A stretch of DNA of 64,000 nucleotides from Erysipelotrichaceae bacterium (GCA_015059015.1 SVBG01000002.1:49636-113635); one strand, 5' to 3'. Positions 6,142 to 56,312 are shown, numbered from the stretch's first letter. Program-made: numbers and translations. Notes: generated by a model not told the origin, from the letters alone.

Positions 6142-6546
6142 ATGTTTAAGAAGAATTTAATTCTTAAAATTGTACTAAGTGTAATTGCACTTGGTGCAGT
6201 AGTATTATGTGTAGTATTACTTCATAATAGTTTTAAACCAGATTATGATGGAATAATCACAGTTGAAGTAATAGATTTAGATGGATCTGTTATTAATAAA
6301 AAAGAAATTGAGTTTAAAGAAAATGATCAATTAATGAATTTAATTGAAGATAACTTTAATAACGTAACATATCAAAATGGTATGATTATGTCAGTTGAAG
6401 ATTACAATACTCCATCAGATTGGTCAACTTTTTTAAGTATATATGTTAATGATGAAATGAGTCCAGTAGGACTTGCTGATATTGTATTTACTGATGGAAC
6501 AAAAATTTCTTTAATTATTACAGAATATATATCTGATTGGTCTTAA
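6142..6546 (+). CDS. DUF4430-like secreted/membrane-anchored protein (putative cobalamin-binding, often paired with ECF CbrT)
   Basis: N-terminal signal-anchor, 134 aa, lying immediately downstream of the B12 riboswitch. Family assignment rests on context and size. Confidence 0.5.
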   Translation: MFKKNLILKIVLSVIALGAVVLCVVLLHNSFKPDYDGIITVEVIDLDGSVINKKEIEFKENDQLMNLIEDNFNNVTYQNGMIMSVEDYNTPSDWSTFLSIYVNDEMSPVGLADIVFTDGTKISLIITEYISDWS

Positions 6547-6551
6547 GGCAT

Positions 6552-7076
6552 ATGCATTTATCTATTAAAGATATAGTAATAATTGCAGCATGTATATCTA
6601 TTGTTTTTGTTCAAGAACAATTATTATCTTTTTTACCAAATATTCAGTTGACAATTCTTTTGTTAATTTTATATAGTAAAAAACTAGGATTAATAAAAAC
6701 AATTATTATTGTAATAATTCATTCATTTCTTGACTGTTTAGTTACAGGGAGTTTAAACTTATATTATTTTCCATTTATGTTAATGGGTTGGTTATTAATA
6801 CCTGTGATTATAAATTTGTTTTTTAGAAAAACAGAATCAGTTATTACTCTTTCAATAATGGGCATTGTTTTTGCGTTACTTTATTCTTGGGCTTATATCA
6901 TTCCAAATGTTTTAATTCCTAATGAATCTATTTCAAATGTAGGTCTTATTAATTATTTAGCAGCCGATATTACATTTGAAATAATACTTGCAAGTAGTAG
7001 TTTTTTATCGATTTTATGGCTTTATAATCCTTGTTCAAAAGTGTTTGATAAAATATTAAAAGACGTTTATAAATAG
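6552..7076 (+). CDS. CbrT-like ECF-transporter S-component membrane protein (putative cobalamin uptake)
   Basis: Polytopic, ~5-6 TM, ~175 aa. Overlaps the stop of the DUF4430 gene. The ORF track starts at a TTG at 6537; the ATG at 6552 is the alternative. Confidence 0.45.
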   Translation: MHLSIKDIVIIAACISIVFVQEQLLSFLPNIQLTILLLILYSKKLGLIKTIIIVIIHSFLDCLVTGSLNLYYFPFMLMGWLLIPVIINLFFRKTESVITLSIMGIVFALLYSWAYIIPNVLIPNESISNVGLINYLAADITFEIILASSSFLSILWLYNPCSKVFDKILKDVYK

Positions 7077-8008: not shown

Positions 8009-8040
8009 AAAGCGCTATGAATTTCATAGCACTTTTTATT
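8007..8040 (+). terminator. Intrinsic terminator
   Basis: GCGCTATGA-att-TCATAGCAC followed by TTTTTATTTTTT. Confidence 0.6.
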
Positions 8041-8095
8041 TTTTAATATATATTTTATGGTATAATACAAAAGATTAAACAAAAAAGGTGATAAA

Positions 8096-9448
8096 ATGGC
8101 AAGTTCAAATAATTTTACAGAAGGAAATATAACAAAAAAGTTAGTAACATTTATGCTCCCGATTCTAGCATCTTTAATTCTACAAGCCATGTATGGAGCT
8201 GTAGATACTTTAGTAGTTGGAAAATTTGGTTCTGATGTTGGATTATCAGGTGTATCTACAGGAAGTAGTATCGTAATGTTCGTTACTTTTACTGTTGCAG
8301 CATTTTGTTCAGCAGTAATGATACAAATAGCTAGATATTTAGGTGAAAAAAAAGAAGAGCGTATTGGAAAAGTAATAGGTGGAGCAGTTTGCTTTTTTAT
8401 AGTATTTTCAATAATTCTTACAATAATATTATTAGTATTTGCTCGTCCGATAGCAGTATTGATGCAATCTCCTAAAGAAGCTTTAGATAAAACAGTAACA
8501 TATATTAAAATATGTGGTATTGGAATGATATTTATAGTTTTCTATAATGTAATAAGTAGTATCTTTAGAGGACTTGGTAATTCAAAACTTCCACTTTTAT
8601 TTGTAGGTATATCTTGTGTTGTTAATATTGTTTTGGATTTAATTTTTGTAATTATATTTAAATTGGATGTTGCAGGAGCAGCACTTGCTACGGTAATAGC
8701 TCAAACAGTAAGTGTAATATTATCAATTATCATAATATTAAAACAAAAACTTCCATTTACAATTACTTTAAAAGATTTTAGGTTTAATAAAGAAGTTCTT
8801 TTATTTACCAAAATTGGTTTTCCAATTGCCCTTCAAGAAATATTAACTAATTTATCTTTTGCAGCACTACTTGCTTTTATAAATAAACTTGGACTAGAAC
8901 AATCTAGTGGATATGGAATAGCTAATAAACTAGTTAGTTTTGCAATGTTAATACCAAGTGCTTTAATGCAATCAATGGCAAGCTTTGTTGGTCAAAATAT
9001 AGGTGCAGATAAACTTGATCGTGCTAAAAAAGCAATGTATACTGGTATGATATTAGGCTCTTTTGTAGGTGTGTTTATTTTTATTGGATTAATATTTTTT
9101 GGAAAAGAAGTATCAATGATATTTACAGATAACCAAAGTTATGCATTTGAATCAGGCGAATATTTAAAAGGATTCGCATTAGAAGTAATTTTAACAAGTG
9201 TTTTATTTAGTTATATGGGGTATTTTAGTGGTCAAGGTAAAACAATGTTTGTAATGATTCAAGGTTTAGCTCAAACATTCTTAGTTAGACTTCCAATGTC
9301 TTATATAATGAGTATTAGACCAAATCCATCATTAACTTTAATTGGGCTTGCTGGTCCAAGTGCAACTATATTTGGAATATTGACAAATTTGATATATTAT
9401 ATTATTATAAATAATAAGAAAAAAGTAAAAGAAATAATAATTGATTAA
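8096..9448 (+). CDS. MATE family efflux transporter
   Basis: 450 aa, 12-TM pattern, typical MATE N-terminus (ILASLILQAMYGAVDTLVVGKFG). Confidence 0.85.
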   Translation: MASSNNFTEGNITKKLVTFMLPILASLILQAMYGAVDTLVVGKFGSDVGLSGVSTGSSIVMFVTFTVAAFCSAVMIQIARYLGEKKEERIGKVIGGAVCFFIVFSIILTIILLVFARPIAVLMQSPKEALDKTVTYIKICGIGMIFIVFYNVISSIFRGLGNSKLPLLFVGISCVVNIVLDLIFVIIFKLDVAGAALATVIAQTVSVILSIIIILKQKLPFTITLKDFRFNKEVLLFTKIGFPIALQEILTNLSFAALLAFINKLGLEQSSGYGIANKLVSFAMLIPSALMQSMASFVGQNIGADKLDRAKKAMYTGMILGSFVGVFIFIGLIFFGKEVSMIFTDNQSYAFESGEYLKGFALEVILTSVLFSYMGYFSGQGKTMFVMIQGLAQTFLVRLPMSYIMSIRPNPSLTLIGLAGPSATIFGILTNLIYYIIINNKKKVKEIIID

Positions 9449-18777: not shown

Positions 18778-19854
18778 ATGAACAAAGTATTAGAGTATTT
18801 CAATAAATTAAATAATAAAGAAGAAATAATAAAAAAAGAAATCGTAGTATGTGGGTGGCAAAAAATTTATAAAGACACATTTATATCCGCAATTACACCT
18901 TATTTATTTGAAGAACTTAATATTAAAGAACACATTGCGAAAGAAAAAAATGAAAATAGAGATCAAAGAATAAAGCCTAAAGTATACATTACAATTCATG
19001 ATACAGGAGATACTGGTCCTAAACATAATGCAAAATTCTGGAGTGATACAGTATATAAAGAAATGTGGGTTGATACAAAAGAACCTTACAAAGCAAGTTT
19101 CCAATATGTTGTTGGAAATGATGGTATATATCACAATATTCCGGATAATGAAGTAGCATACCATGCAGGTGATACAACTCAATATGATTATACTTTATAT
19201 AATACTGGTGTAAAAATATCCGATAAGTTTGAACTTGGTATTAGTGAAGATAGTTATTATACAATCAATGGCGAAAAAACTACTGTAAAAGCTCCAATGT
19301 ATGAAAAAGAAATTGATGGAAAACTTGTAACTAGAGTATGTACAATTGATGATATAAACGATCAAGGTATCTGTATGGCAGTTGATGATGAATATTTCTA
19401 TCTTGGTGAGACATATTTTAATAAAACATATGAAAAAATAGCAAACCGAGGTGGAAATAATAATTCGATAGGTATTGAAACATGTGTTAATGAAGGAAGT
19501 AATATTTGGTTATCATTCATGAGATGTGCTAAACTTGTCGCAAAACTACTAGATGAAAATGATTTAGAACTATATGACATTAAACAACATCATTATTTTA
19601 GTGGCAAAAATTGCCCACAAACACTAAGAGTAAATAACCTTTGGGAATATTTCTTACATTGTGTTGAAGTAGAAAGACAAGTATTAGAATTTATTAAAGA
19701 AGGATATCAAATTAAACTTATTCCTGATTCTGAATATTTAGAAACAAACGGAATCCTTACAAAACTACCTAAATGTGTTAAAGGTATTGGCTATACAATT
19801 GAAACTACAAAAGATGGTGTAGTTGATAGTTATAAATATGTTAAATTAGTGTAA
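18778..19854 (+). CDS. N-acetylmuramoyl-L-alanine amidase, Amidase_2/PGRP-type (no signal peptide)
   Basis: Motifs YHAGD, NNNSIGIETCVNEG and HHYFSGKNCPQ. Carries the same long insert (YYTINGEKTTVKAP) found in the C-terminal domains of the two giant lipoproteins. Confidence 0.75.
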   Translation: MNKVLEYFNKLNNKEEIIKKEIVVCGWQKIYKDTFISAITPYLFEELNIKEHIAKEKNENRDQRIKPKVYITIHDTGDTGPKHNAKFWSDTVYKEMWVDTKEPYKASFQYVVGNDGIYHNIPDNEVAYHAGDTTQYDYTLYNTGVKISDKFELGISEDSYYTINGEKTTVKAPMYEKEIDGKLVTRVCTIDDINDQGICMAVDDEYFYLGETYFNKTYEKIANRGGNNNSIGIETCVNEGSNIWLSFMRCAKLVAKLLDENDLELYDIKQHHYFSGKNCPQTLRVNNLWEYFLHCVEVERQVLEFIKEGYQIKLIPDSEYLETNGILTKLPKCVKGIGYTIETTKDGVVDSYKYVKLV

Positions 19855-26698: not shown

Positions 26699-26726
26699 AA
26701 AAAAGTCCGATTATATAAATAACACA

Positions 26727-26763
26727 AAACTCCTAGTCATATTTGATTAGGAGTTTTTATTAT
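26727..26763 (+). terminator. Intrinsic terminator after the hydrogenase operon
   Basis: AAACTCCTAG-tcatatttgat-TAGGAGTTT followed by TTATTATTT. Confidence 0.7.
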
Positions 26764-26811
26764 TTAAATTTACGAAAACGTTTGCAAAAAAATTAAAATA
26801 TTATTTGAAAT

Positions 26812-26847
26812 AAATTTTAATTAATGATAAAATAATTACATAGAGAT
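26812..26847 (+). promoter_or_regulatory. Candidate promoter TTGAAA-N17-TAAAAT, conserved upstream of both giant-lipoprotein paralogs
   Basis: The same TTGAAATAAATT....AATGATAAAATAATTA block recurs at 33627-33660 before the paralog. Confidence 0.45.
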
Positions 26848-26886
26848 TTTAAAAATCACTATTAAAAAGTAAAAAGGAGAAAAAAT

Positions 26887-29800
26887 ATGAAGGTTATTAA
26901 AAAAGCATTTTTACTAAGTCTTGTGATAATTGCTTTAATGGTTACACTTGCTTCATGTTCAAAAAAGAAAGTTACACTTTCTGCAGAAAAAAATGAAATT
27001 AGTGTAATTATTGGTGAAAATGTAGATCTTAAACTTTCAGCTACTGAAGTTAAGAAATTTACAGAACAAGACATTCTTGCAAATCTTGATATAACATCAA
27101 GTGATAATAAAATAGTTAAAGTAGAAGCTGATAAAATAACTGCAGTTGGAATAGGTTCTGCAGAAGTAACAGCTACTTGGAAAGAATATGATGGTGCAAC
27201 AGTTACAGTTAAAGTAAATGTAATTGCACCTGAAGTAGGTGAAGTTACTTATTCTACTCTACCTGTTAATGTATATGTTGGAGATAAATTCTCTATTACT
27301 CATGCAGCTAGTAGTGAAGTAACAGTGACTTATACTACATCAAATAAAGATATACTTTCAGTGGATGGTAATAATTTTGAAGCTTTAGCAAAAGGTGCTG
27401 CAAAAATAACTGCTACTGCAACTAATGGTTATAAAGAAACTAAGAAAGAATGGGATGTAGAAGTTCTTCAAGGTGAATATACAATAACATATGTATTAAA
27501 TGGTGGTGTAAACGCAGAAGCAAATCCATCTAAATATGATGTAAGAGAATTACCTTTAATTATTGCTGCTGCTACAAAAGAGCATAAAACATTCTTAGGT
27601 TGGACAAAAGAAGCAGAATCTACAGATTATGTAACTGAAATTGCAGCAGGTGAAGCAGGCGATATTACTTTATATGCACAATTTTCTGATATCGTTCACA
27701 GTATTTCATATGAATTAAATGGTGGTAATTTACCAGAAGAAGCTCCAGTTACATATATTGAAGGCGAAGGAGTACAATTAGTTAATCCAACAAAAGAGCA
27801 TAAAACATTCTTAGGCTGGACAAAAGAAGTAGGTTCTACTGATTATGTGACTGAAATTAGTGCTGAAGAAATTGGAAATGTTACTTTATATGCTAATTAT
27901 GCTGATATTATTCATAATATTACATATGTATTAAATGGTGGAATATTACCAGAAGAAGCTCCTGTCACATACATAGAAGGCGAAGGAGTACAACTAGTTA
28001 ATCCAACAAAAGCGCATAAAACATTCTTAGGCTGGACAAAAGGAATAGGTTTTTCTGATTATATAACTGAAATTAGTGCTGAAGAAATTGGTGATGTTAC
28101 TTTATATGCTGATTATGAAGATATTGTTTATAGTATTACATACGAATTAAATGGTGGAATAAACCCTACGGATGTACCTCTTACTTATATTGAAGGTGAA
28201 GGTTGTGTATTACCAGTTCCTACAAAAGAAGACTATAAATTCTTAGGATGGACTGTAAAATTAACATCTACTGACTATATTACTGAAATAGGAAAAGAAA
28301 CAACAGGTGATGTTAAAGTTTATGCTAAGTGGGAAAAAATAATTGTTTATTCAAATATTGTTTATGAATTAAACGGTGGAACAAATCCTTCAGATGCTAA
28401 AAAGGAATATGAAGAAGGTGTCGGTTATACACTTCCAATTCCAACTAAAGCTAATCATAAATTCTTAGGATGGACAAAAGAAGTGGAATCTACAAATTAT
28501 ATAACTGAAATTGGAAAAGATGCAACAGGTGAATTCAAAGTATATGCTAATTGGGAAAAACAAATTATTAAATCTGCAATTAAATATAATTTAGATGATG
28601 GTCTTTTAGATGACGGCTATGTAACAGAATATACTGAAGGTGAAGTAGTAACATTACCAGTTCCAACAAAAGAAGGCTTTGATTTCTTAGGTTGGTCAAT
28701 TGTAAAAGGTGGTACTTCATACATTAATGAAATTCCTGCTACTGCAACAGGTGAATTTGTTGTTTATGCTAATTGGAAAGAAAAATTAGTTTTATTAGAA
28801 GGTTATAAATATGTTGGCGAAGGATTACACTTTGCTACATTAGATGAAGCTGTTTCAAGTGTTGCTGATGGTGATAAGATTATGCTTCCTGCTGGTGAAT
28901 ATGCATTAAGTGTTGTTATTAATAAGAGTATTGAAATTCATGGACCTAATTCTAATTTACAACCTACAAGCTTTAAATCAGGTGAAGCTGTTATTAATGT
29001 GCAAAAAGATGTAGCTGGTAATATTGCTGCTAAAAACGTAGTATTTAATGGTGTTCACTTAAAAGGTACAGGTGGTGGTGGAGGAATTCCAGGTGTATTC
29101 TTCCAAGATGGTGGTAATATTGAAACACTAAAATTCAAGAGTTGTGTTGTTTCTGATATGAATACATTTATCAAATTCCGTGATTGTACATCTCAAGCTG
29201 AAGTAATTATTGAAGATTGTAATATCCATACTATTGGTCAATTTATTGTTTGGGTACAAGGCGCTCAAACTAAGAAAGTAATTGTTACAGGTAACATTGT
29301 TGATGGTTCTACATGTGGTGCTGTTACTAATACAGCTGCTGCCTTATTTAGAGTTAGAAGTGGTTCATTTGAAGCTTATAATAACTACTTTAAAGGTTCA
29401 TCACAAAATGACCCAGGTTATTTCGAAAGTATTGCAGTTGAATCATATGTTAAATATAATACATTTGAAAATGTAACTAAATTTGCAAATTCTGCTGCAT
29501 CTAACTTATTAGTATTTGATGAAAATTTATATCTTGATGCTAATGGTAAAGTACTAAATGCTGTTCCTAGTCAAGTTTCTGTTAATGGTGTTACTGCCGA
29601 TGTTACTATCGCAACAAGTGAAGAAGATAGAGCTGCTAGATATATTCAACAATTAATATCTTCTAATCCAGATCGTTATTTCGCTGTTGAATATGAATTA
29701 AATGGTGGTACATTAACATCTTCTGCTGTTACTGCTTATGATAAAGAAGTAGGTATTGCTAATCTTCCTACAATTGAAAAAGAAGGATATATCTTCTTAG

Positions 29801-32800
29801 GCTGGTATTTAAACGGTATAAAAGTTGAAAATATTCCTGCTGGTACAACTGGAAATTTAGTTCTTGTAGCTAAATTTAGAGATGTTGCACTTGTTGTTAA
29901 CGGAACTAATGATGAAGGATGTTATCCAACATTAGCTGCTGCATTAGCAGTTGTTAAAGAAGGCGAAACTATTAAACTAGTTGCTGGAAATTATTCTGAA
30001 AATGTTACTGTATCAGTTGCTAATATCACTATTCAAGGTCCTAATGTTGGTGTTGCTGGTAATGATGCAAATCGTGCTAATGAAGCAGTATATACTGGTA
30101 TTATAACAGTTGATGCTTCTGCAAAAAATTTAGTTATTGATGGTATAAAATTTACGGAAGGAGCAAGAGTGATTGGTACAACTGGTGCTTATGTAGGATT
30201 TATATTCCAAAACAATTTAGTTACTGATTCAACACTTGCTGCTGCTGAATATAGTGCAACAGGAAGATATGTTGATTCTGGATTTATTAATTTCTCATAT
30301 TCTGCTGTTACATCACTTGCTAACTTTAAGTTTAGTAATAATAAATTTAATAATGTAGCTGCTGAAAATATTCATTTATGTCGCAATATTAATTTATCTG
30401 TAGATAATAATGAGTTTTATAACTATACTCGTGACTCTATAAGAATTGATGGTGGTTATGTTTATGGAACTTTAGCATTTACAAATAATAAATTTGAAAA
30501 TCCTTCTGTAGGTACTGGTCAAAATGCAGTATACTTTAGAAGTTATAGTGGCGAATCAAATACATCTACTACTTTAATTTTCAAGGGTAATGAATTTATT
30601 AAATGTGGTGGTTTAGATAAAACTCAACCTAATAGTGGTACTGTAGGTGCTTGGTATTATCAAGAAAATGGTGCTAAAATTATAGTTGAAGAAAACATTT
30701 TTGATCATTGTTATAACGGAATGTACTTTAGAAATAATGGTGGTACAGCGTCTGATTGGTCGTGTGAAGTTAAAAATAATATCTTCTTAGGTCTACCTAC
30801 TGATTTCTATTATCAATCATATAATGGAACTGGTGATACTGAAAGTACTAATCCACATCTTACTGTTTTTGGTACAAACTATTATGAAGATAATTCAGGT
30901 AATATGATTACTGATTTATCTTTATATGCTGAATTATTTAAACATTGTAATACTGCAGGTACTTCACTTAGTTCTAAACCATCAATTAATGATGCTGAAG
31001 CTCTTGAATTCTGGGAAATCACATATGAACTAAATGGTGGTACAACTAAAGAAGCATTTACTTACAGTTATACTAGCTTAGATAAAGTTGTTATTTCACT
31101 TCCTACACTTACACTTCCTAATCACCAATTTAATGGTTGGTTACTAGATGGGCAATTAGTAACTGAAATTCCTGGGGATGCTGAAGGTAACTTATATCTT
31201 ATCGCAGATTTTACTGCATTGGAGGGTGAATTGTATAATATTGAATTTGTAACAAATAAAGAAAATGTTATTTGGCCTTCGCGTTCTGCTGCTGATCATA
31301 CTGAAATTGTTAATGAATTATTTAACGATTTATATGAATGGGCTAAAGGTAATGGCGAAACAAGAAGTTATGCAGAATATGAAGCTTATATTAAGGCTCA
31401 ATTAGCTGCTTATGCAGATATTAAATTACGTAATACTTCTTTAGGTAACTATCCTGCTGAAGATGGAAGTACTGAATATTTCTTCAATGTTCCTAAATAC
31501 TATCAAAAATGGAAAGAGTTCTTTGAAGTATTCCATACAGCAATGTTAGCAGTTAATCCTGATCAAAGTTTCTATACAGATACTTATGCTACAATGGTAA
31601 GAATGAATCAATTTATTACATGGAGTTCAACTGGTGAAAAATACTTTGCATCATATTTATCAAAATTCTGTGCTGCAACAAAAGTACCTCAAGAAATTCC
31701 AACAAGTTATCGTGGTGGTCAAACAGTAGCTCTACCTAATATTTCACTTGCAAATGGTCTTGAATTCTTAGGTTGGTATGATAATGACGAATTTACTGGT
31801 TCACCAATTACAAATATTAAATCAACAGATGTTGGTAATAAAGTTTTCTATGGTAAATGGGCAGAGGAAGTTAAAGTAGAAAAAGTTGAAATTAATAAGA
31901 TTTCTGAATTATTGTTGTTTACTACACATCAATTAGTTTGGAGTTTAACTCCTGGTAATGCTACTGATACAACAGTTGAATTCTTCTCAAGTAATGAAAG
32001 CGTTGCGTATGTTTCTGCAAAAGGTTTAATTACTGCTTTAGCAAATGGTAAAACTACAATTACTATGAGAGTGTATGGAAATAGAAAATTAGATGTAGTA
32101 TTTGAATTAGAAGTATTTGTTAATGATTATATTGATGGTTCATATGAAACTGAATCTTATGTAGTTATAGATGAATCAATTCAATTAAATGCAGAAGTGG
32201 TTAAAAAAGATGGAACTATTGGTGCAGTTAAATGGACATCAGCTACTCCTGATATTGTATCAGTAGATGCTAATGGTCTTGTTACAGCATTAAACGCAGG
32301 TACTGCGAAAATTATTGCAACAGATGTAAATAATTCATCATTGAAATTAGAATTTGTTGTAGTTGTTCTAGAAGAACTTCCAGAAGATATTTTAGCTTTT
32401 GCACTTGAATCTAATGAAAGCAATATCTTTACAAGATATGATCTAAATATTGGTAACACATATAATAAAGATATTTTAGGAAGTGTTTCTAAATTATTAG
32501 GTAATAGTCCACTTGTTAAAGACACTAAGTATTATGAAGCATCAAATAAATCTAGTGCTACTTATGGTACAATGTCTTCAATTGAATTTATTACTGTTCA
32601 CTATACAGGTAATATGGCTTCTGGAGCTGATGCAAATGCGAATGCTAGTTACTTTTCTAATAATGGATCTACTTCAATTCATTATACAACTGGTAATGAT
32701 GGTGTATATTATTGTATGGATGAATCAAAAGGTGCATGGCATGCTGGTGACTCTGGTGCTCTTGCTGAAGTTGGTGAATTCAAGTGGATTAAATCTGGCG

Positions 32801-33552
32801 TTAAAGTTGGAGCAAATGATCCTCAATATCCTAACATTACAATTTCAAATGATTTCTATTACGAAATTAATGGTCAAAAGACTACTGTTAAGATGCCTAA
32901 TCCTTGGAATTACTCAAGTAGAAATACTGACCATATCCTAAACGCTGATGGAACAATTTCATCTAAAGCTGGTTATGGACAAACTGCATTCTCTAATAGA
33001 ACTCCTGAATCATTTATTAATGCTCAAGGATTACCATTTACTATTGTTGATGGTGAATACTATATGGGTACTACTTGGTGGTGTTATACTCAAGTTTATG
33101 AAGGACGCATTTGTGGTACTGGTGGTAATAGAAATTCTATTGGTATTGAATCTTGTGTTAACGAAGGTTCTGACCTTTGGTGGACATGGCAAAAGACAGC
33201 TCAACTTGTTGCAGATATTATGGTTAGACAAAATCTTGATATTACAAGAGTAAGAGGTCATCATTTCTTCTCTGGTAAGGATTGTCCTCAACCAATGCTT
33301 GAAAATGATCTAGAAATTTGGTATGAATTCTTAGAACTAGTTGAAACTGAATATGAATTATTAACTAAATATGCTGGTTATGAAGTATCAATTGTATCTA
33401 ATAACCCAGATATTGTTGATAATAATGGTCGTGTAATTAAACAACCATCTGAAACTACATGTGTAACATATACTATTACATTTACAAAAGGAACTGAAAC
33501 TAAATCAATTACTCTTGCATCAATGGTAAAAGGTTTATATGTAGATAGATAA
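26887..33552 (+). CDS. Giant surface lipoprotein (2221 aa): Big_2 domains, about 7 Listeria-Bacteroides-type repeats, central right-handed beta-helix (pectin-lyase-like) region, C-terminal Amidase_2/PGRP-like domain
   Basis: Lipobox LASC after a signal peptide. Repeated YxLNGG...FLGWT modules. Long run of beta-helix-like NN/TG repeats. C-terminal AWHAGD, NRNSIGIESCVNEG and GHHFFSGKDCPQ. Confidence 0.8.
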   Translation: MKVIKKAFLLSLVIIALMVTLASCSKKKVTLSAEKNEISVIIGENVDLKLSATEVKKFTEQDILANLDITSSDNKIVKVEADKITAVGIGSAEVTATWKEYDGATVTVKVNVIAPEVGEVTYSTLPVNVYVGDKFSITHAASSEVTVTYTTSNKDILSVDGNNFEALAKGAAKITATATNGYKETKKEWDVEVLQGEYTITYVLNGGVNAEANPSKYDVRELPLIIAAATKEHKTFLGWTKEAESTDYVTEIAAGEAGDITLYAQFSDIVHSISYELNGGNLPEEAPVTYIEGEGVQLVNPTKEHKTFLGWTKEVGSTDYVTEISAEEIGNVTLYANYADIIHNITYVLNGGILPEEAPVTYIEGEGVQLVNPTKAHKTFLGWTKGIGFSDYITEISAEEIGDVTLYADYEDIVYSITYELNGGINPTDVPLTYIEGEGCVLPVPTKEDYKFLGWTVKLTSTDYITEIGKETTGDVKVYAKWEKIIVYSNIVYELNGGTNPSDAKKEYEEGVGYTLPIPTKANHKFLGWTKEVESTNYITEIGKDATGEFKVYANWEKQIIKSAIKYNLDDGLLDDGYVTEYTEGEVVTLPVPTKEGFDFLGWSIVKGGTSYINEIPATATGEFVVYANWKEKLVLLEGYKYVGEGLHFATLDEAVSSVADGDKIMLPAGEYALSVVINKSIEIHGPNSNLQPTSFKSGEAVINVQKDVAGNIAAKNVVFNGVHLKGTGGGGGIPGVFFQDGGNIETLKFKSCVVSDMNTFIKFRDCTSQAEVIIEDCNIHTIGQFIVWVQGAQTKKVIVTGNIVDGSTCGAVTNTAAALFRVRSGSFEAYNNYFKGSSQNDPGYFESIAVESYVKYNTFENVTKFANSAASNLLVFDENLYLDANGKVLNAVPSQVSVNGVTADVTIATSEEDRAARYIQQLISSNPDRYFAVEYELNGGTLTSSAVTAYDKEVGIANLPTIEKEGYIFLGWYLNGIKVENIPAGTTGNLVLVAKFRDVALVVNGTNDEGCYPTLAAALAVVKEGETIKLVAGNYSENVTVSVANITIQGPNVGVAGNDANRANEAVYTGIITVDASAKNLVIDGIKFTEGARVIGTTGAYVGFIFQNNLVTDSTLAAAEYSATGRYVDSGFINFSYSAVTSLANFKFSNNKFNNVAAENIHLCRNINLSVDNNEFYNYTRDSIRIDGGYVYGTLAFTNNKFENPSVGTGQNAVYFRSYSGESNTSTTLIFKGNEFIKCGGLDKTQPNSGTVGAWYYQENGAKIIVEENIFDHCYNGMYFRNNGGTASDWSCEVKNNIFLGLPTDFYYQSYNGTGDTESTNPHLTVFGTNYYEDNSGNMITDLSLYAELFKHCNTAGTSLSSKPSINDAEALEFWEITYELNGGTTKEAFTYSYTSLDKVVISLPTLTLPNHQFNGWLLDGQLVTEIPGDAEGNLYLIADFTALEGELYNIEFVTNKENVIWPSRSAADHTEIVNELFNDLYEWAKGNGETRSYAEYEAYIKAQLAAYADIKLRNTSLGNYPAEDGSTEYFFNVPKYYQKWKEFFEVFHTAMLAVNPDQSFYTDTYATMVRMNQFITWSSTGEKYFASYLSKFCAATKVPQEIPTSYRGGQTVALPNISLANGLEFLGWYDNDEFTGSPITNIKSTDVGNKVFYGKWAEEVKVEKVEINKISELLLFTTHQLVWSLTPGNATDTTVEFFSSNESVAYVSAKGLITALANGKTTITMRVYGNRKLDVVFELEVFVNDYIDGSYETESYVVIDESIQLNAEVVKKDGTIGAVKWTSATPDIVSVDANGLVTALNAGTAKIIATDVNNSSLKLEFVVVVLEELPEDILAFALESNESNIFTRYDLNIGNTYNKDILGSVSKLLGNSPLVKDTKYYEASNKSSATYGTMSSIEFITVHYTGNMASGADANANASYFSNNGSTSIHYTTGNDGVYYCMDESKGAWHAGDSGALAEVGEFKWIKSGVKVGANDPQYPNITISNDFYYEINGQKTTVKMPNPWNYSSRNTDHILNADGTISSKAGYGQTAFSNRTPESFINAQGLPFTIVDGEYYMGTTWWCYTQVYEGRICGTGGNRNSIGIESCVNEGSDLWWTWQKTAQLVADIMVRQNLDITRVRGHHFFSGKDCPQPMLENDLEIWYEFLELVETEYELLTKYAGYEVSIVSNNPDIVDNNGRVIKQPSETTCVTYTITFTKGTETKSITLASMVKGLYVDR
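27480..28800 (+). repeat. In-frame tandem array of ~210-bp units encoding Listeria-Bacteroides-type repeats (copies 2-4 nearly identical)
   Basis: Repeated ...PTKEHKTFLGWTKE..STDYVTEI...LYA.. modules seen in the translation and DNA. Confidence 0.8.
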
Positions 33553-33558
33553 AAAAAT

Positions 33559-33595
33559 AGGTTAGTAGATAAAATTCTACTAGCCTTTTTCTATG
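33559..33595 (+). terminator. Intrinsic terminator
   Basis: AGGTTAGTAGA-taaaat-TCTACTAGCCT followed by TTTTTCT. Confidence 0.7.
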
Positions 33596-33626
33596 TATAT
33601 TTAACAAAATATTAAAAAATTACTTG

Positions 33627-33660
33627 AAATAAATTCTTTCTAATGATAGAATAATTATAT
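33627..33660 (+). promoter_or_regulatory. Candidate promoter TTGAAA-N17-TAGAAT (paralogous to the one at 26812)
   Basis: Motifs read directly. Sequence shared with the upstream region of the first paralog. Confidence 0.45.
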
Positions 33661-33705
33661 AAAGATTTTGATATTATAAAATTATTCATAGAAAAGGAGA
33701 AAATT

Positions 33706-36700
33706 ATGAAGTTTTTAAAAAAAGTATCGTTATTAAGTTTTTTATTAATTGGTTTAATTTTTATACTCACTTCATGTTCAAAAAAGAAAGTTACACTTTC
33801 TGCAGAAAAAAATGAAATTAATGTATTGATTGGTGAGGACGTAGATCTTAAACTTTCAGCTACTGAAGTTAAGAAATATACAGAACAAGACATTCTTGCA
33901 AATCTTGATATAACATCAAGTGATAATAAAATAGTTAAAGTAGAAACTGATAAAATAACTGCAGTTGGAATAGGTTCTGCAGAAGTAACAGCTACTTGGA
34001 AAGAATATGATGGTGCAACAGTTACAGTTAAAGTAAATGTAATTGCACCTGAAGTAGGTGAAGTTACTTATTCTACTCTACCTGATAATATTTATGTTGG
34101 AGATAAATTCTCTATTACTTATACAGCTAGTAGTGAAGTAACAGTGACTTATACTACATCAAATAAAGATATACTTTCAGTAGATGGTAATAATTTTAAT
34201 GCATTATCAAATGGTATTGTAAAAATTACTGCTACTGCTAGTAATGGTTATAAAGAAACAAAGAAAGAATGGGAAGTAGAAGTTATTCAAAGTGAATATA
34301 ATATTACATATGTATTAAATGGTGGAAGTAATGATCTTGATAATCCAACTACATATGACATAAGAGAATTATCTTTAGCTATTAATCCCGCAACACATAA
34401 TCATAAAACATTTTTAGGATGGACTGTTGAAGAAAGTTCAAAAGATTATATATATGAAATATCTACAGGTACTACAGGTGATATTACTTTATATGCACAA
34501 TATAAAGATATAACACATAACATCGTTTATAACCTTGATGGAGGAAGACTTCCTAAAGGTTCTCCTTTTAAATATGTTGAAGGTGAAATAACTCAATTAG
34601 TTATCCCTACAAAAGAAGGTTATGTATTCCTTGGTTGGTCAACTGAAATTGACTCTAATACATATATTACTGAGATTGGAGAAGATGCTATGGGCGAAAT
34701 GAAAATATATGCACATTGGAAAAGAGAAAATACATTTGCAGTAATTTACGATTTAGATGGTGGGGTTTCTACTGAATCATATTTACAATCTGCAACTCCT
34801 GCTGCAACACTTGAAGTTAACAATTATAACTATAATGAAGGTGCATATTGGACTGGTACAAATTATAAAAATAATGTATTCTTAGGTCAATCAGGATATG
34901 ATCCTACTGCAACATTCTCTGATCGTATTTATATTGGAAAGGATCCTGTAAGTGGTTTATGGGTTGTTCTTGATATTATTCAATCTGGTCCTTCTTCTTG
35001 GGCTGAAGGTGCTGAATATGTATTAACAATTTCTAATTCACACAATAATAAAGGAACACTTCATTCTATTGTAGTAAATTCAATTAAAGTTGGACAAGTT
35101 GTTTCATTTAGTTGTAATGTAACTGATATGAATCATTCTACTCCTGGTGATGTATACTTCTATAATGATACTCCAAAGGAGTCAATAGTAAGAATGGATG
35201 TTACTCCAGATGATACTTTAATTACACCTTCAAAACTTGGTTCAAGATTTGATGGTTGGTATGATGAAAATGGTAAAAAATATGAGACTATATCTGATTT
35301 AACTGATGATGTTAAATTAATTGCTAAATGGACTCTTCTTACTCAAGTAACTGATATGCAAGTAGATGCAATGACAGAAGAAATGATTACAGGAGACACT
35401 TTCCAAATTTCGGCAAAAGTTCTTCCAACTGATGCATATTTCCAAGAGGTAATATTTACATCTAGTAATCCTGATGTTATAAGTGTTAGTGAAACTGGTT
35501 TAATGACTGCTATTAATGCTGGTACTTGTACAATCACAATTAGAGATTATATGAGTTATGCAGTAAAAAATTATACAGTTACAGTTTACTCAATACCTTC
35601 AATTGATGTTGACTTTGAAGATGAATTTGATGGTATTTTAAGTGTAGGAGAAAAAGTACAAATTCATGCTCACTCGCTTGGTAAAGATACTGAAGATGCA
35701 GAAATATATTATGAATCAAGTAACACTTCAATTGCAACAGTAGATGAAGATGGTTACGTAACTGCTTTAAAAGAAGGTGAAGTAATTATCACAGTAAGTG
35801 ATAATACTGGATCTAACTATAAAGTTAAAATTCAGTTAATTGTTGCTGATCTTGCTACAGAAACTAGAGTAGATCAAGTATTAAAATTAATTGCTGAATA
35901 TAATTTTGCAATCGTTGATGCTGGTAATGCATGTTTATATAATGATGGTACTCAAAGATATTATGACTCAATATATGGTAGCGTTAACTATTTCTTATTT
36001 GCACCTTATGTTGTAGAAGAAAAATATTATGCTAATTCTGATGCTATTACTGATAACTCAAATCACAAAGATCGTCGTGCAGAAGATACAATTGAATTTG
36101 TTACAGTTCATGATACCGCAACTCTAACAGGTACAGTTCATTCAATTGCTTCATCAATGTCAACAGGTGGAACTTCAATTCATTATACAACTGGTAATGG
36201 AGAAATTGTTGGTGTTGTTCGTGAAAAATATCGTGCATATCATGCAGGAGACGGAACTGGTTATTCATTCTCTTGGCTTGCAACTGGTATTAAAGTAGGT
36301 GAAAAAGCTCCAGAATTTGATATGGTTAAAAATGGTAGTACATGGTACTTAACTATTGATGGACAAGTTACTTCAATTTCACTTCCTGTTTCAAATGGAA
36401 CTAAGACAATTGCTAATCCATCAAAAGCACACTTCTCAACATTAGGTCCTTCATATAAAGTTATTGATGGATATTACTATGTAGCTCCATTTAGAGTTGA
36501 CTTCTCACAAGTAGCAGAAGGTTGTATTGGTAACCAAGGTGGAAATAATAACTCTGTTGGTATTGAAATGTGTGTAAATGTATCCGGTGATATATATGAT
36601 ACATGGCAAAGAACTGGTCAACTTGTAGCTGATATTCTTGTTAGAAATGGTTTAACATTAGATAGAGTTAAAGAACACAATACTTGGAGTGGTAAAAACT

Positions 36701-37026
36701 GTCCACAATGTTTAAGAGCAGGTTCTTATTGGAATGAATTTATGAAGATGGTTGAAGTTAACTATATCATTATGAAAGATTATAAAGATGCAGAAATTAC
36801 ATTCAAATCTAATAATCCAGATATTGTTAATGAAAATGGTCGTGTTATAAATCCTCCAAAAACAACAACTACTGTATCTTATGATGTAACAGTTACTATT
36901 GAAGGTGTATCTAAAACTATAACACTTTATAGTGTAATTCCTGGTACAACTTGTTGGACTCAATGGGATGGTTCATATCCTTCTAGTTTAATTTGGAAGA
37001 ATGGAAAATTTGGTAAAATATTTTAA
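33706..37026 (+). CDS. Surface lipoprotein paralog (1106 aa): Big_2, Listeria-Bacteroides-type repeats, C-terminal Amidase_2/PGRP-like domain
   Basis: Lipobox LTSC. First ~200 aa are more than 90% identical to the 2221-aa paralog. C-terminal AYHAGD, NNNSVGIEMCVNVSG and EHNTWSGKNCPQ. Confidence 0.8.
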   Translation: MKFLKKVSLLSFLLIGLIFILTSCSKKKVTLSAEKNEINVLIGEDVDLKLSATEVKKYTEQDILANLDITSSDNKIVKVETDKITAVGIGSAEVTATWKEYDGATVTVKVNVIAPEVGEVTYSTLPDNIYVGDKFSITYTASSEVTVTYTTSNKDILSVDGNNFNALSNGIVKITATASNGYKETKKEWEVEVIQSEYNITYVLNGGSNDLDNPTTYDIRELSLAINPATHNHKTFLGWTVEESSKDYIYEISTGTTGDITLYAQYKDITHNIVYNLDGGRLPKGSPFKYVEGEITQLVIPTKEGYVFLGWSTEIDSNTYITEIGEDAMGEMKIYAHWKRENTFAVIYDLDGGVSTESYLQSATPAATLEVNNYNYNEGAYWTGTNYKNNVFLGQSGYDPTATFSDRIYIGKDPVSGLWVVLDIIQSGPSSWAEGAEYVLTISNSHNNKGTLHSIVVNSIKVGQVVSFSCNVTDMNHSTPGDVYFYNDTPKESIVRMDVTPDDTLITPSKLGSRFDGWYDENGKKYETISDLTDDVKLIAKWTLLTQVTDMQVDAMTEEMITGDTFQISAKVLPTDAYFQEVIFTSSNPDVISVSETGLMTAINAGTCTITIRDYMSYAVKNYTVTVYSIPSIDVDFEDEFDGILSVGEKVQIHAHSLGKDTEDAEIYYESSNTSIATVDEDGYVTALKEGEVIITVSDNTGSNYKVKIQLIVADLATETRVDQVLKLIAEYNFAIVDAGNACLYNDGTQRYYDSIYGSVNYFLFAPYVVEEKYYANSDAITDNSNHKDRRAEDTIEFVTVHDTATLTGTVHSIASSMSTGGTSIHYTTGNGEIVGVVREKYRAYHAGDGTGYSFSWLATGIKVGEKAPEFDMVKNGSTWYLTIDGQVTSISLPVSNGTKTIANPSKAHFSTLGPSYKVIDGYYYVAPFRVDFSQVAEGCIGNQGGNNNSVGIEMCVNVSGDIYDTWQRTGQLVADILVRNGLTLDRVKEHNTWSGKNCPQCLRAGSYWNEFMKMVEVNYIIMKDYKDAEITFKSNNPDIVNENGRVINPPKTTTTVSYDVTVTIEGVSKTITLYSVIPGTTCWTQWDGSYPSSLIWKNGKFGKIF

Positions 37027-43096: not shown

Positions 43097-43939
43097 TTAT
43101 ACTTCATTGTTATCTTTTTCTAATAATAGTTTTTTTAATGCAAGCATAATTTGATCATATTCAATAGATTGTGCGTATGCAAACTGTTTGCGGTATTTAT
43201 CCCACATACTCCTTAGTTCAGAACTTTCTGCAATATTATGCAAGATGGAAGGAATATCTGCAATTTGTTTTGTGGTACCTCGATGAGCGGCTGTTGAATT
43301 TAGTCCTTCCATAAATACTGCATGATCAAATTTTTGTGTAGTGCTTAATATATAAGTGTCGTAAAAGTCTCTTGGACGAGTATTAAATACACCACGGCGC
43401 AAGATTGTTTCAACTTTTTCTGCTAAGATTGTTTCAATATTATATGTCCAAAGTTCATATGATTTATTGTTGTCAAACATTTCTGAGAAACCATATTTAA
43501 TTGCATGTGGTGTAATAACATCTCCAGTGGATACATCAATACTAAGAGGTGTATTCATTGTATCAAATTTAGCGTTTAACATAATACGATAACCTCCGTA
43601 TGTGTCGTTTTCGCGGATAGGAGAAACAGTCATAATTTCAAATATAACACCATCGTTATAGTGAATACTACAAATATTTTCTATTGCACTACTAATAATT
43701 TCAGGTGTAAGAGGAAGATTTTTTAAAGTTGCATCCATATCCATTGTTGCTCTATTATTTAGTCCTACGATGGCAGCTACTAGTATTCCTCCTTTTAGCA
43801 CAAACTTATCTTTATATTTAGAATTAGAAAGACGAATAAGTAAACGCTCAAACATATAGTTATGTAAAATAACTTGTGCAGGAATATTTTTTTCTTTAGC
43901 AATATTTTTAATTTTAGCTTTTAAACTCATTGCATTCAT
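43097..43939 (-). CDS. AbiEii/AbiGii-family nucleotidyltransferase toxin (type IV TA / abortive infection)
   Basis: 280 aa. N-terminal KGGILVAAIVGLNNRATMDMD nucleotidyltransferase motif typical of DUF1814/AbiEii. Overlaps the upstream AbiEi gene by 1 nt. Confidence 0.7.
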   Translation of the reverse strand: MNAMSLKAKIKNIAKEKNIPAQVILHNYMFERLLIRLSNSKYKDKFVLKGGILVAAIVGLNNRATMDMDATLKNLPLTPEIISSAIENICSIHYNDGVIFEIMTVSPIRENDTYGGYRIMLNAKFDTMNTPLSIDVSTGDVITPHAIKYGFSEMFDNNKSYELWTYNIETILAEKVETILRRGVFNTRPRDFYDTYILSTTQKFDHAVFMEGLNSTAAHRGTTKQIADIPSILHNIAESSELRSMWDKYRKQFAYAQSIEYDQIMLALKKLLLEKDNNEV

Positions 43940-44532
43940 TATAAAAGAACCTCCAAATATTGATATAAAATTTTTGATATGCGCATTTTATTTGCGTAAG
44001 TACTTAATTTGTTTAAATCTTTTTTTGGATTTGCTACATACATTTTAAGAGCTGTTAAGAATGTTTCGGTTCCAAGTTTATTACGACTGCGAACTATATC
44101 ACAAATCGTGCGTTCTAAATCGTATGTAGGAACTTCATTTCCTGCAGGAGTTTTTAATGTAGTTTTTCCCATTTCAAATAGTTCATTCTTGATGTAATAC
44201 ACTTTGCATTCTTCTTTAATAGAGGTTGAAGGAATGCAATTTGACGGAGCAGTAATTGTGTGTTCAAAAGGAACACGATCACTTATTCCATGTAAATATA
44301 AGGCAGTTTCGTGTGAAAAAATTACTTTATTAGAACGGCTACTAATTGATAATAATTCATCAGGCATATCATCAGGCATAATGTATTGACCATTTGCAAT
44401 TCTATATATTTTTTCTTGTTTGCAAAGTTTATAAAGCATAGCTTTTGAAATTCCGTATTGTGCTGCAATTTTTGTTTTAATAATTCCACCATTTGTTTTT
44501 GCAATATAAGAAAGTTCAGAGATATAATTCAT
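43939..44532 (-). CDS. AbiEi-family antitoxin / transcriptional regulator
   Basis: 197 aa. N-terminal winged HTH (GIIKTKIAAQYGISKAMLYKLCKQEKIYRIANGQY), characteristic of AbiEi_4. Translationally coupled to AbiEii. Confidence 0.7.
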   Translation of the reverse strand: MNYISELSYIAKTNGGIIKTKIAAQYGISKAMLYKLCKQEKIYRIANGQYIMPDDMPDELLSISSRSNKVIFSHETALYLHGISDRVPFEHTITAPSNCIPSTSIKEECKVYYIKNELFEMGKTTLKTPAGNEVPTYDLERTICDIVRSRNKLGTETFLTALKMYVANPKKDLNKLSTYANKMRISKILYQYLEVLL

Positions 44533-52723: not shown

Positions 52724-52730
52724 TTAAAAA

Positions 52731-52765
52731 CTAAACATCTATAGAGAAATCTATAGATGTTTTTT
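52731..52765 (+). terminator. Intrinsic terminator of gap
   Basis: ACATCTATAG-agaaat-CTATAGATGT followed by TTTTTTTT. Confidence 0.75.
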
Positions 52766-52786
52766 TTAAAAAGTTTCATGCAACTA

Positions 52787-52815
52787 TTTACAAATGAATA
52801 AATATATGCTATACT
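52787..52815 (+). promoter_or_regulatory. sigma-A promoter TTTACA-N17-TATACT (cassette copy 1)
   Basis: Hexamers and spacing read directly. Conserved in all four cassettes. Confidence 0.6.
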
Positions 52816-52821
52816 ATAGGT

Positions 52822-52915
52822 GAAGTAATTTGTTTCACTCGTATGAAACTCTTCTTCATTGTTGTAGAAAAGTCCCTTTTATTGAAAAAACTGTTGGAAG
52901 AGGGACTTTTTATAT
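52822..52915 (+). ncRNA. Putative ~90-nt antisense sRNA (type I antitoxin-like), copy 1
   Basis: Predicted from the promoter +1 to the intrinsic terminator GAAAAGTCCC...GGGACTTTTTAT(52868-52915). Contains a GTGAA..TTCAC hairpin and ACTCTTCTTC. Overlaps the 3' end and terminator of the convergent peptide mRNA. Confidence 0.4.
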
Positions 52916-52916
52916 T

Positions 52917-53015
52917 CTACTTCTTTTTGTTCTTTTTTATGGAACTAAGAAGTTTAATCGTTGTGCTTATTAAACTGATTACTTCAGTAATAAGCTTGAT
53001 TATATTAATAAACAT
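52917..53015 (-). CDS. Putative type I toxin-like small membrane peptide, 32 aa (MFINIIKLITEVISLISTTIKLLSSIKKNKKK)
   Basis: ORF conserved in frame across the three cassettes despite nucleotide and amino-acid substitutions. Hydrophobic/amphipathic helix with a Lys-rich tail. Weak RBS GAAAGG lies inside a conserved hairpin (53017-53041). Below the 60-aa ORF-track cutoff. Confidence 0.45.
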   Translation of the reverse strand: MFINIIKLITEVISLISTTIKLLSSIKKNKKK

Positions 53016-53306
53016 TGCTTCTTACCTTTCTTAGGAGAAGCACATTTTTTTATTAATAAGAAATATAATAGTATCATGTGTTATTCTCCTTTCTCATATC
53101 CCCTTCAAATGAGATAAAGAAGAAGAGTACACATCCCCTTGTAGTATAAATAATACTGTATACGAGAGAATCAAATCACCTCATATATATATTTAGCAAA
53201 ACTACCCTAAATTGCTTTTTTTATTTTAAAAAAGTTTTCGACAATAATTAAATGTTAATTAATATATATGTCAGTTAGACAGATAAATTTCTATAGTGTA
53301 TTATCA

Positions 53307-53334
53307 CGGTATCGGAATGGTACCGTTTTTTTTA
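53307..53334 (+). terminator. Hairpin CGGTATCGGAATGGTACCG plus T-run; same element recurs at 58808-58833 (island boundary repeat)
   Basis: Preceded ~60 nt upstream by a promoter-like TTCGACA-N17-AATATA, so it may delimit a ~60-nt transcript. Confidence 0.45.
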
Positions 53335-53345
53335 TTTTTAAAAAA

Positions 53346-53743: not shown

Positions 53744-53846
53744 GGTGCATTTTTTTATTTTCTTAATATAGGACAAAAGACGTCCTAACACCTTTAAACA
53801 TTTTTGTGATATACTTTTAGTGTGGAAAAATAAAGGTGGTGAAAAT

Positions 53847-56215: not shown

Positions 56216-56312
56216 GAAGTAATTCGTTTCACTCGTATGAAACTCTTCTTCGTTTAGTAGAAAAGTCCCTTTTTTATAAAATTTGGTTTCTAGAGGGACT
56301 TTTTATATTCTA
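56216..56312 (+). ncRNA. Putative antisense sRNA, copy 2
   Basis: As for copy 1. Confidence 0.4.

Follow-up and report, generated by a model that had tools for sequence, protein, structure and literature searches.

Why would a bacterium carry a peptidoglycan amidase at the far end of a surface protein more than two thousand residues long? The question is raised by two genes standing in tandem in a stretch of 64,000 nucleotides from an uncultured Erysipelotrichaceae bacterium of the herbivore gut (GCA_015059015.1 SVBG01000002.1:49636-113635), in the following called the window, which is low-GC chromosomal DNA (about 27% GC). The genes, coding for 2221 and 1106 amino acids (aa), were confirmed as open reading frames (ORFs) at 26887..33552 and 33706..37026, together with a related 358-aa gene at 18778..19854. 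An initial annotation had described the long genes as lipoprotein paralogs with homogenised 5' ends, and had suggested an autolysin, an interbacterial weapon or a domesticated phage endolysin as their product. In our analysis the three proteins came out as very probably active N-acetylmuramoyl-L-alanine amidases, the two giants being extracellular, and the beginning of the tandem genes had recently been overwritten by gene conversion. That the giants act on foreign rather than on the producer's own peptidoglycan is a conclusion we hold tentatively, somewhat short of calling it probable.

Both long proteins ended in an Amidase_2 domain (PF01510; 69.8 bits in the 2221-aa and 57.2 bits in the 1106-aa protein), as annotated, and the third copy was the only domain found in the 358-aa protein (50.7 bits), which carried no export signal. 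All three scores lay well above the gathering score of 26, with the match split in two by an insert. The Zn ligands His/His/Cys and the catalytic Glu and Lys (H-x5-K-x-C) were kept in the three copies, and these positions were invariant in 93 free-type and 63 tethered-type sequences of the family; we take the columns to correspond to H29, E90, H129, K135 and C137 of PlyL. The invariance of every one of these residues speaks against the view that the proteins are non-catalytic adhesins or membrane-wall tethers, in which the amidase fold would bind peptidoglycan like the peptidoglycan recognition protein (PGRP) receptors. Adhesin-like stalks would fit such a role, but non-catalytic PGRPs typically lack the Cys ligand, and we regard this alternative as very improbable.

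The amidase had the T7-lysozyme/PGRP alpha-beta fold. AlphaFold2 models were obtained for the 358-aa protein (pLDDT 95.4, pTM 0.93) and for aa 1828-2221 of the large paralog (pLDDT 94.8, pTM 0.94), and the elements followed one another identically in both. An N-cap, consisting of a helix and two strands, leads into the amidase core, which is interrupted by the beta-rich insert; after the core resumes come a long helix and, at the C-terminus, a beta-sandwich. What the giants carry at their tip is thus found complete, as a free protein, in the 358-aa gene product. As modelled, the catalytic module of ~390 aa would be one rigid unit, whether free or tethered. No structure found by Foldseek in the PDB or BFVD covered more than 41-43% of the amidase model. 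The three copies in the window were mutually only 30-36% identical and each had its own orthologues; they are thus old paralogs, and a recent duplication of the amidase domains was rejected.

The insert lies between the motifs HAGD and GGNxNSxGIE and was present in all three copies, as the annotation had claimed, with 92 aa in the 358-aa protein, 123 aa in the large and 95 aa in the small paralog instead of the estimated ~60-90 aa. The adjoining HAGD motif presumably lines the substrate groove. In the alignment of 93 sequences the conserved positions within the insert were mostly Gly, Pro, Tyr and aliphatic residues, which suggests that the insert serves as a structural element or substrate platform and not in catalysis. 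When 1.84 billion proteins were searched with a profile built on the insert alone, 221 cluster representatives were retrieved at E <= 0.001; their lengths ranged from 450 to 4105 aa, and in nearly all of them the match was located ~250 residues before the C-terminal end.

An origin from prophage endolysins or prophage remnants was weighed at this point, as the closest solved structures are the prophage amidases XlyA, PlyL, PlyG and LysGH15. A scan of 2.9 million IMG/VR viral contigs gave 26 relatives, none with the insert or the flanking domains; they matched mostly the C-terminal half of the core at no more than 43% identity, and the two that spanned more of the query were too short to hold an insert. 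The insert was also absent from BFVD models and solved structures (best BFVD match TMq 0.43). The neighbours of the locus were housekeeping genes in conserved synteny, namely HPRT, an FAD oxidoreductase, serS, a pseudouridine synthase, a three-gene FeFe hydrogenase, a convergent M18 aminopeptidase, a cytidylate kinase-like gene and Fur, and no phage or mobile-element genes flanked the tandem pair. Lipoprotein signals on the proteins, deep paralogy and orthologues across orders likewise argue against this origin. We consider it extremely improbable, and the earlier suggestion of a domesticated phage endolysin had to be given up in any recent sense.

Relatives of the amidase were numerous. For the 358-aa type at least 730 were counted among 90%-identity clusters, and 323 stretches matched the amidase in a set with one genome per species. 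The matches listed among these 323 all came from metagenomes, as assembled genomes (MAGs) or as scaffolds, with animal and human guts as the main source, and were mostly labelled Bacilli, Mollicutes, Tenericutes, Acholeplasmatales, Acholeplasmataceae, 'Staphylococcus sp. CAG:324' or 'Coprobacillus sp. CAG:698', with a few other labels that are probably imprecise. CAG-698 is placed in ML615J-28 (GTDB) and CAG-324 is not listed (PMC10868615 supplement). Judged from these labels, the hosts appear to be reduced-genome gut Bacilli of the ML615J-28/RFN20/RF39/Acholeplasmatales type, in line with the annotated lineage restriction of the insert.

Eighty of the loci were fetched and contained 79 complete module ORFs, all with an insert of ~80-140 aa. 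Thirty-four were no longer than 400 aa and lacked a lipobox, 29 had 601-1000 aa, and nine exceeded 2000 aa, all nine with a lipobox. The family thus has two forms, a free protein of ~355 aa and a lipoprotein that may be as short as 450 or as long as ~4100 aa. Tandem pairs were common, as in 703 + 2649 aa (RGIG9028), 716 + 2869 aa (a Hadza MAG) and 774 + 3005 aa (CAG:324). The giant architecture is the norm of the family and not peculiar to the window locus. Sampled members contained Flg_new, Big_2 and Amidase_2, and some had collagen, LRR_5, GDSL lipase or transglutaminase-like domains. Second amidase loci in related genomes (L050:8954-19142 and L027:8921-19909) held such tandem pairs, each with a ~710-aa lipoprotein and a giant (2649 or 2869 aa) bearing the same module. 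In the papers searched we found no description of the module (N-cap, insert and C-terminal domain), of its giant lipid-anchored display or of its restriction to gut Bacilli.

Both long ORFs began with a basic and hydrophobic signal peptide followed by a lipobox, LASC in the large and LTSC in the small paralog, with the cysteine at position 24. A basic n-region, an h-region and the pattern [LVI][ASTVI][GAS]C were recognised in MKVIKKAFLLSLVIIALMVTLASC and MKFLKKVSLLSFLLIGLIFILTSC with a crude regular expression, without a dedicated predictor. The two proteins are accordingly predicted to be tethered via an N-terminal lipid-modified cysteine. The membrane-proximal N-module that follows (aa 25-197, two immunoglobulin (Ig)-like domains) is rare: among 5.8 billion proteins only 8 fragmentary homologues were found, all with at most 74% identity. 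Assignment of the N-termini to the BLB8/JUQZ-1 family of NCBIfam was dismissed (21.7 bits against a threshold of 40).

The 5' ends of the two genes could be compared in register from the ATG. Identity was 74% over nt 1-66, 96.7% over nt 67-486 (14 differences, longest identical run 138 nt), 82-88% over nt 481-600 and 66% over nt 601-1000, and no similarity was left past ~nt 1020. The tract of high identity codes for most of the N-module. The annotation had spoken of a shared promoter sequence and of more than 90% identity over the first ~600 bp; a tract of high identity exists, but it excludes both the promoter and the signal peptide. The ~100 nt upstream of the paralogs showed only partial likeness, with a promoter-like TTGAAA-17-TA[A/G]AAT site and TG extension in common. 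From the graded identity we concluded that an older duplication, reaching from the promoter to the first two or three Flg_new repeats, carries a recent high-identity tract embedded inside it.

Comparison with an orthologue pointed in the same direction. P0253, the small-paralog orthologue of a related organism, was 89% identical to the small paralog overall and 88-96% identical outside the N-module, but only 78% identical in aa 25-160. At the protein level the two window paralogs shared 93% of their residues in the tract and 50% after it. Their N-modules were equally far from the N-module of P0253 (77-78%), and the N-module of the syntenic relative L004 (MAG RGIG9028) matched both at ~60%. Within the tract the paralogs are thus closer to each other than to their orthologues, and the reverse holds outside, as expected for a converted tract flanked by lower identity. 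An assembly error as the source of the 5' similarity was excluded, since the exact 1106-aa protein was found on 12 contigs, one of them a 313-kb JGI contig with the same 2221 + 1106 tandem. This recurrence, the P0253 comparison and the rarity of the N-module show that this is a case of gene conversion rather than an artefact, and the annotated paralogy of two lipoproteins with homogenised 5' ends, shaped by conversion or duplication with domain shuffling, was borne out here and by the mosaic relatives described below.

Between anchor and tip, nine Flg_new and three Big_2 domains were matched by Pfam in the large protein, and three and two, respectively, in the small one. Repeats 2-4 of the large gene form a 216-nt tandem array with 86% matches. 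The domains inserted at aa 1441-1600 (large) and aa 360-500 (small), both nested in Flg_new-like repeats, had no Pfam match. The annotated beta-helix region of the large paralog found support only through homologues. No Pfam family matched the two blocks in the window protein itself even at E up to 1, and a single-sequence search gave no PDB match. Among the homologues of block 2 (42-68% identical), however, four of eight matched PF13229 (best E 3.8e-6), and the block 2 profile matched the N-terminal 65 aa of pectin methylesterases (E 1.6e-4). A beta-helix in the large paralog is plausible on these grounds. The pectinesterase catalytic motifs (QDT, DFIFG) were absent from the blocks, as checked by eye only.

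The stalks were found to be mosaic and variable. Housekeeping proteins were 93-97% identical between the window and L004, and the 358-aa amidase 90%; the amidase module of the large paralog was 83% identical, and its stalk and N-module only 59-60%. At the position of the large paralog L004 has a 970-aa gene, in which the N-module is fused straight to the last 773 residues of the large paralog; the ~1250 aa that hold Flg_new repeats and beta-helix blocks in the latter are missing. In P0256 (2064 aa) the first part, with Flg_new and both beta-helix blocks, resembles the large paralog (60%), and the second part the small one (76% over 836 aa). In these mosaic relatives, P0256 and P0251/L004, the junctions were located at Flg_new repeats. 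Together with the tandem array this led us to conclude that stalk cassettes are exchanged by recombination at repeated modules.

Other Flg_new proteins were encoded close by. Upstream of the window on the same contig (L110) a surface protein of 1280 aa is encoded. It combines Flg_new and Bact_surface_Ig-like domains with a glycerophosphodiester phosphodiesterase (GDPD) domain and suggests that the organism displays several hydrolases on Flg_new scaffolds; L110 also codes for a 276-aa beta-lactamase-fold protein and a WapI-like protein. At window positions 63309-63929, running past the 3' end (L108:13005-14828), a 207-nt tandem repeat coding for Flg_new marks another surface-protein gene. Its first two copies were 99% identical. 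The gene has 607 aa on the JGI contig and 1229 aa in the related strain L109, so the region varies in size.

Each gene of the tandem had its own promoter-like site and a terminator-like hairpin at its 3' side, and the two are therefore taken as separate transcription units. The following mechanism can be proposed. The giants would be two separately transcribed, membrane-anchored extracellular N-acetylmuramoyl-L-alanine amidases, in which the lipid-anchored Cys is followed by a stalk of Ig-like, Flg_new and, in the large protein only, beta-helix domains, and then by a distal catalytic tip. The tip would cut the stem peptide off the glycan strands of peptidoglycan distant from the producer membrane, the likeliest target being neighbouring bacteria, either their walls or the debris of these. 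The producer cell would take up the muropeptides and peptides set free in this way, and the cytoplasmic 358-aa amidase and a nearby signal-less NagZ-like GH3 would complete the breakdown. We consider this the best explanation as a whole, to be held as tentatively as its weakest step, the foreign target. We prefer such a target because of the stalk length, the adhesin-type modules, the paralog expansion, the fast mosaic stalks, the missing wall-binding repeats and the other scaffold-borne hydrolases. Known wall-binding modules (LysM, SH3b, GW, CWB, SLH) were not found by Pfam in the window proteins or the sampled family members.

The GH3 protein has 515 aa, no signal peptide, and is encoded at L108:17587-19134, ~7 kb past the 3' end of the window on the same 313-kb contig. 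Its best NCBIfam match was the NagZ beta-N-acetylhexosaminidase PRK05337 with 199.9 bits (cutoff 207). Muropeptides might be broken down by this protein and the cytoplasmic 358-aa amidase acting together.

The same features would also serve a contact-dependent weapon. Gram-positive competitors would then have their surface polymers bound or degraded by the stalk with its beta-helix blocks and would be lysed by the amidase at the tip, and little, no or modified peptidoglycan would protect the producer. A distal catalytic tip, adhesin-type repeats and beta-helix blocks would suit this use, as would the rapid divergence, mosaicism and paralog expansion typical of conflict genes, and a cognate immunity gene would be unnecessary if the producer lacks the substrate. 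On the other hand, a tethered enzyme reaches only the cells it touches, the beta-helix blocks lack the pectinesterase motifs, and no toxin-delivery genes adjoin; the WapI-like immunity protein a few kb upstream of the window is unlinked to the locus. We judge a weapon quite unlikely. Sequence cannot separate it from scavenging, and we treated it as a sub-case of the foreign-target explanation.

The main alternative, possible if doubtful, is that the proteins are the host's own autolysins. AmiA/B/C, LytA and Atl are classic cell-separation amidases, and lipid-anchored amidases could likewise replace lost Lyt/Cwl enzymes, split the septum and turn over a thin wall; the stalk would only span and overshoot this wall, and muropeptides from the cell itself would be recycled by the 358-aa protein in the manner of AmpD. 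Conservation of the 358-aa gene near housekeeping rates (90% against 93-97%) fits such a function. So does the position of the nearest named relatives in ML615J-28, an order for which predictions give a wall in most cases but neither Lyt/Cwl endopeptidases nor sortases (PMC10868615). However, at least five paralogs per genome were found (e.g. RGIG9028 with copies of 358, 970, 703 and 2649 aa), stalks of 2000-4100 aa far exceed any wall, and these stalks are mosaic, fast-evolving and free of any known wall-binding module. The family also occurs in MAGs labelled Acholeplasmatales and Tenericutes.

What is known of the host groups bears on both sides of the question of a foreign target. ML615J-28, RFN20 and RF39 are predicted to lack most Lyt/Cwl hydrolases, penicillin-binding proteins (PBPs) and sortases and to have an incomplete peptidoglycan synthesis or none, and a need for muropeptide scavenging has been suggested (PMC10868615; PMC7301438). 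Several points weigh against a foreign target. The closest named relatives of the host point to ML615J-28, an order in which a wall is predicted for most species of CAG-698 and for essentially all of CAG-313 (PMC10868615). A walled cell without Lyt/Cwl enzymes needs a separation hydrolase, and this amidase family is the obvious candidate. Lipid anchoring is uninformative about the target, since a lineage without sortases uses lipid anchors for surface display generically. The NagZ-like GH3 falls just below its curated cutoff (207 bits) and does not adjoin the amidase locus, and no muropeptide transporter, MurQ or MurP turned up, though no search was aimed at them. The taxonomic labels of the MAGs are imprecise, and presence of the family in wall-less lineages is not proven. 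A regular-expression search for MraY, MurG, SEDS, Mur-ligase and PBP motifs in 1.33 Mb of related loci returned only one UppS; with unvalidated sensitivity and a non-random choice of loci we judged it uninformative.

The foreign-target explanation can be extended to the family. The insert-bearing amidases might serve gut Bacilli with a reduced wall or none (ML615J-28, RFN20, RF39, Acholeplasmatales-type) as an apparatus for harvesting, with lipid-anchored stalks of 1000-4000 residues, composed of adhesin and beta-helix modules, carrying the amidase to neighbours or debris, and with products imported and finished by the free module and the NagZ-like enzyme. We regard this extension as rather unlikely. 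If true, it would supply wall precursors or nutrients that a reduced genome can no longer make, recombination between paralogs (conversion of the N-module and cassette swapping) would retune the targets, and peptidoglycan hydrolases would have been kept and expanded precisely while the lineage lost its own wall. If active as predicted, the enzymes would be the main extracellular peptidoglycan hydrolase set of a widespread uncultured gut group that sits between walled Firmicutes and wall-less Mollicutes. Published surveys named no enzyme for scavenging or for cell separation, and the amidase family is a concrete candidate. The insert is a structurally new decoration of the Amidase_2 core, without solved or viral counterpart, and the locus offers a clear natural case of gene conversion and cassette swapping in giant surface-protein genes.

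The coordinates of the features are collected in Table 1.

Table 1. Positions of the amidase genes, their predicted domains and signals, and further genes of note. Numbers refer to the window unless preceded by L110.
Feature	Position	Strand	Remarks
Free amidase module, 358 aa, no signal peptide	18778..19854	+	H74, E234, H271, K277, C279; 92-aa insert at 19174-19449
Terminator-like stem-loop 3' of the upstream hydrogenase gene	26726..26757	+	Separates hydrogenase from large paralog
Promoter-like site, large paralog	26805..26833	+	TTGAAA-17-TAAAAT with TG extension; counterpart in small paralog
Large paralog, 2221-aa predicted lipoprotein with C-terminal amidase module	26887..33552	+	Same ORF on the 313-kb JGI contig
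Signal peptide and lipobox LASC (Cys24), large paralog	26887..26958	+	Read from the sequence
Gene-conversion tract, copy 1 (gene nt 67-486)	26953..27372	+	96.7% identical to 33772-34191
Membrane-proximal N-module, aa 25-197, large paralog	26959..27477	+	Two Ig-like domains (Big_2/DUF3869-like)
Six tandem Flg_new (Listeria-Bacteroides) repeats, aa 198-632, large paralog	27478..28782	+	
Beta-helix-like block 1, aa 633-930, large paralog	28783..29676	+	Inferred from sequence pattern; 64% identical to P0256 block
Flg_new repeat 7, large paralog	29677..29871	+	
Beta-helix-like block 2, aa 996-1376, large paralog	29872..31014	+	PF13229 matches of homologues; pectin methylesterase profile match
Flg_new repeat 8, large paralog	31015..31206	+	
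Flg_new-like repeat 9 with ~150-aa domain, taken as helical, large paralog	31207..31836	+	Conserved in the 970-aa orthologue of L004
Two Big_2 Ig-like domains, large paralog	31837..32367	+	
Amidase module, large paralog (aa 1828-2221)	32368..33549	+	N-cap, XlyA-like core, insert, long helix, C-terminal Ig-like domain; H1905, E2088, H2125, K2131, C2133
Beta-rich insert of 123 aa in the amidase core, large paralog	32752..33120	+	
Terminator-like stem-loop between the paralogs	33559..33586	+	
Promoter-like site, small paralog	33624..33652	+	TTGAAA-17-TAGAAT with TG extension
Small paralog, 1106-aa predicted lipoprotein with C-terminal amidase module	33706..37026	+	Lipobox LTSC, Cys24
Gene-conversion tract, copy 2, small paralog	33772..34191	+	
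Two Flg_new repeats and a third (aa 346-545) split by a ~130-aa domain, small paralog	34297..35340	+	
Two Big_2 Ig-like domains, small paralog	35341..35880	+	
Amidase module, small paralog (aa 726-1106)	35881..37023	+	H802, E954, H991, K997, C999; 95-aa insert at 36253-36537
Bidirectional terminator-like stem-loop	37041..37067	.	Common to small paralog and convergent M18 aminopeptidase gene
Genes of GDPD surface protein, beta-lactamase-fold protein and WapI-like protein	L110:1-2100, 5168-5998, 7454-8605		

Elsewhere in the window several features were observed that are independent of the amidases. A cobalamin riboswitch (RF00174, 93.1 bits) was found at 5882-6073 on the plus strand, upstream of ORFs 6142..7076. 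At 43097-44532 on the minus strand a gene for an AbiEii-family toxin (280 aa) precedes one for a 197-aa protein without Pfam match, and the two are probably an AbiE-type toxin-antitoxin or abortive-infection pair. A 450-aa protein with a Pfam match to MurJ proved to be an ordinary MATE transporter (TIGR00797 206 bits; MurJ 32.6 bits against a cutoff of 235).

Towards the 3' end an intergenic element of ~500 nt was present in three to four copies that are 60-96% identical (52730-53345, 56124-56700 and 57820-58400, with a partial one at 58560-58850). Every full copy contained a minus-strand ORF of 32 aa with a hydrophobic helix and a Lys tail, e.g. MFINIIKLITEVISLISTTIKLLSSIKKNKKK at 52917..53015, as well as a convergent promoter-like site and a GC stem-loop. 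The element had no Rfam match and looks like a multi-copy type I toxin-antitoxin module. The 728-aa ORF at 53820-56006, which had no Pfam match, is replaced in the related strain by an IS3-family transposase pair (rve, HTH_Tnp_1; L109:1849-3425), which makes the segment between the repeated elements a variable island.

How far do known systems resemble the locus? Gene families of variable lipoproteins in Mycoplasma have conserved 5' ends, and here, too, tandem paralogs of a Mollicutes-related lineage share similar promoters and a homogenised N-terminal coding region. Unlike in these families, however, the signal peptide is the less conserved part in the window (74%) and the proteins are predicted enzymes. 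Invertible repeats flanking the promoters are also missing, as are tandem or simple-sequence tracts besides the Flg_new array, and phase variation was rejected on this account. The stalk building blocks are those of Firmicutes surface proteins with Flg_new (Listeria-Bacteroides / InlB B-repeat) and Big_2 domains, which to our knowledge are usually LPXTG- or GW-anchored adhesins without enzymes, whereas the present lineage uses the scaffold to carry hydrolases (amidase, GDPD, GDSL lipase).

Staphylococcal Atl/AtlE and pneumococcal LytA are surface autolysins that double as adhesins. Atl/AtlE (AmiA/AmiE) and LytA bind the wall non-covalently via GW or choline-binding repeats and have ~300-1250 aa, whereas the window proteins are predicted to be lipid-anchored, have no known wall-binding repeat, carry the catalytic domain distally at the C-terminus and belong to a family whose members reach 4105 aa. 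AmpD (cytoplasmic) and AmiD (lipoprotein) of E. coli and AmpDh2/AmpDh3 of P. aeruginosa are sets of Amidase_2 paralogs serving peptidoglycan turnover. As in these sets, a cytoplasmic and lipid-anchored Amidase_2 proteins occur in one genome, and a NagZ-like GH3 is likewise encoded near the window amidases. The window set may thus resemble AmpD/AmiD functionally; membership of this group is not claimed. The sequence and structural match to the module is much weaker than that of XlyA, the host has no outer membrane, and the giant stalks, the insert and the flanking domains have no counterpart there.

The closest likeness is to XlyA of the B. subtilis PBSX prophage (3hmb/3rdr) and PlyL/PlyG of B. 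anthracis prophages (1yb0/2l47), which have the same constellation of His/His/Cys with Glu and Lys; XlyA and PlyL were also the best PDB sequence matches of the module. In XlyA the motif HAGDG is followed directly by NGSGN, so that XlyA and PlyL have ~2 residues where the window family has its beta-rich insert of 92-123 aa, and both lack the ~65-aa N-cap and the C-terminal helix and Ig-like domain. They are holin-dependent phage lysins with a separate wall-binding domain, whereas the window proteins are chromosomal lipoproteins or a free cytoplasmic protein. By all testable features the core is assigned to the XlyA/PlyL type of Amidase_2, and the family is not a new enzymatic principle but a variation on a well-known enzyme family.

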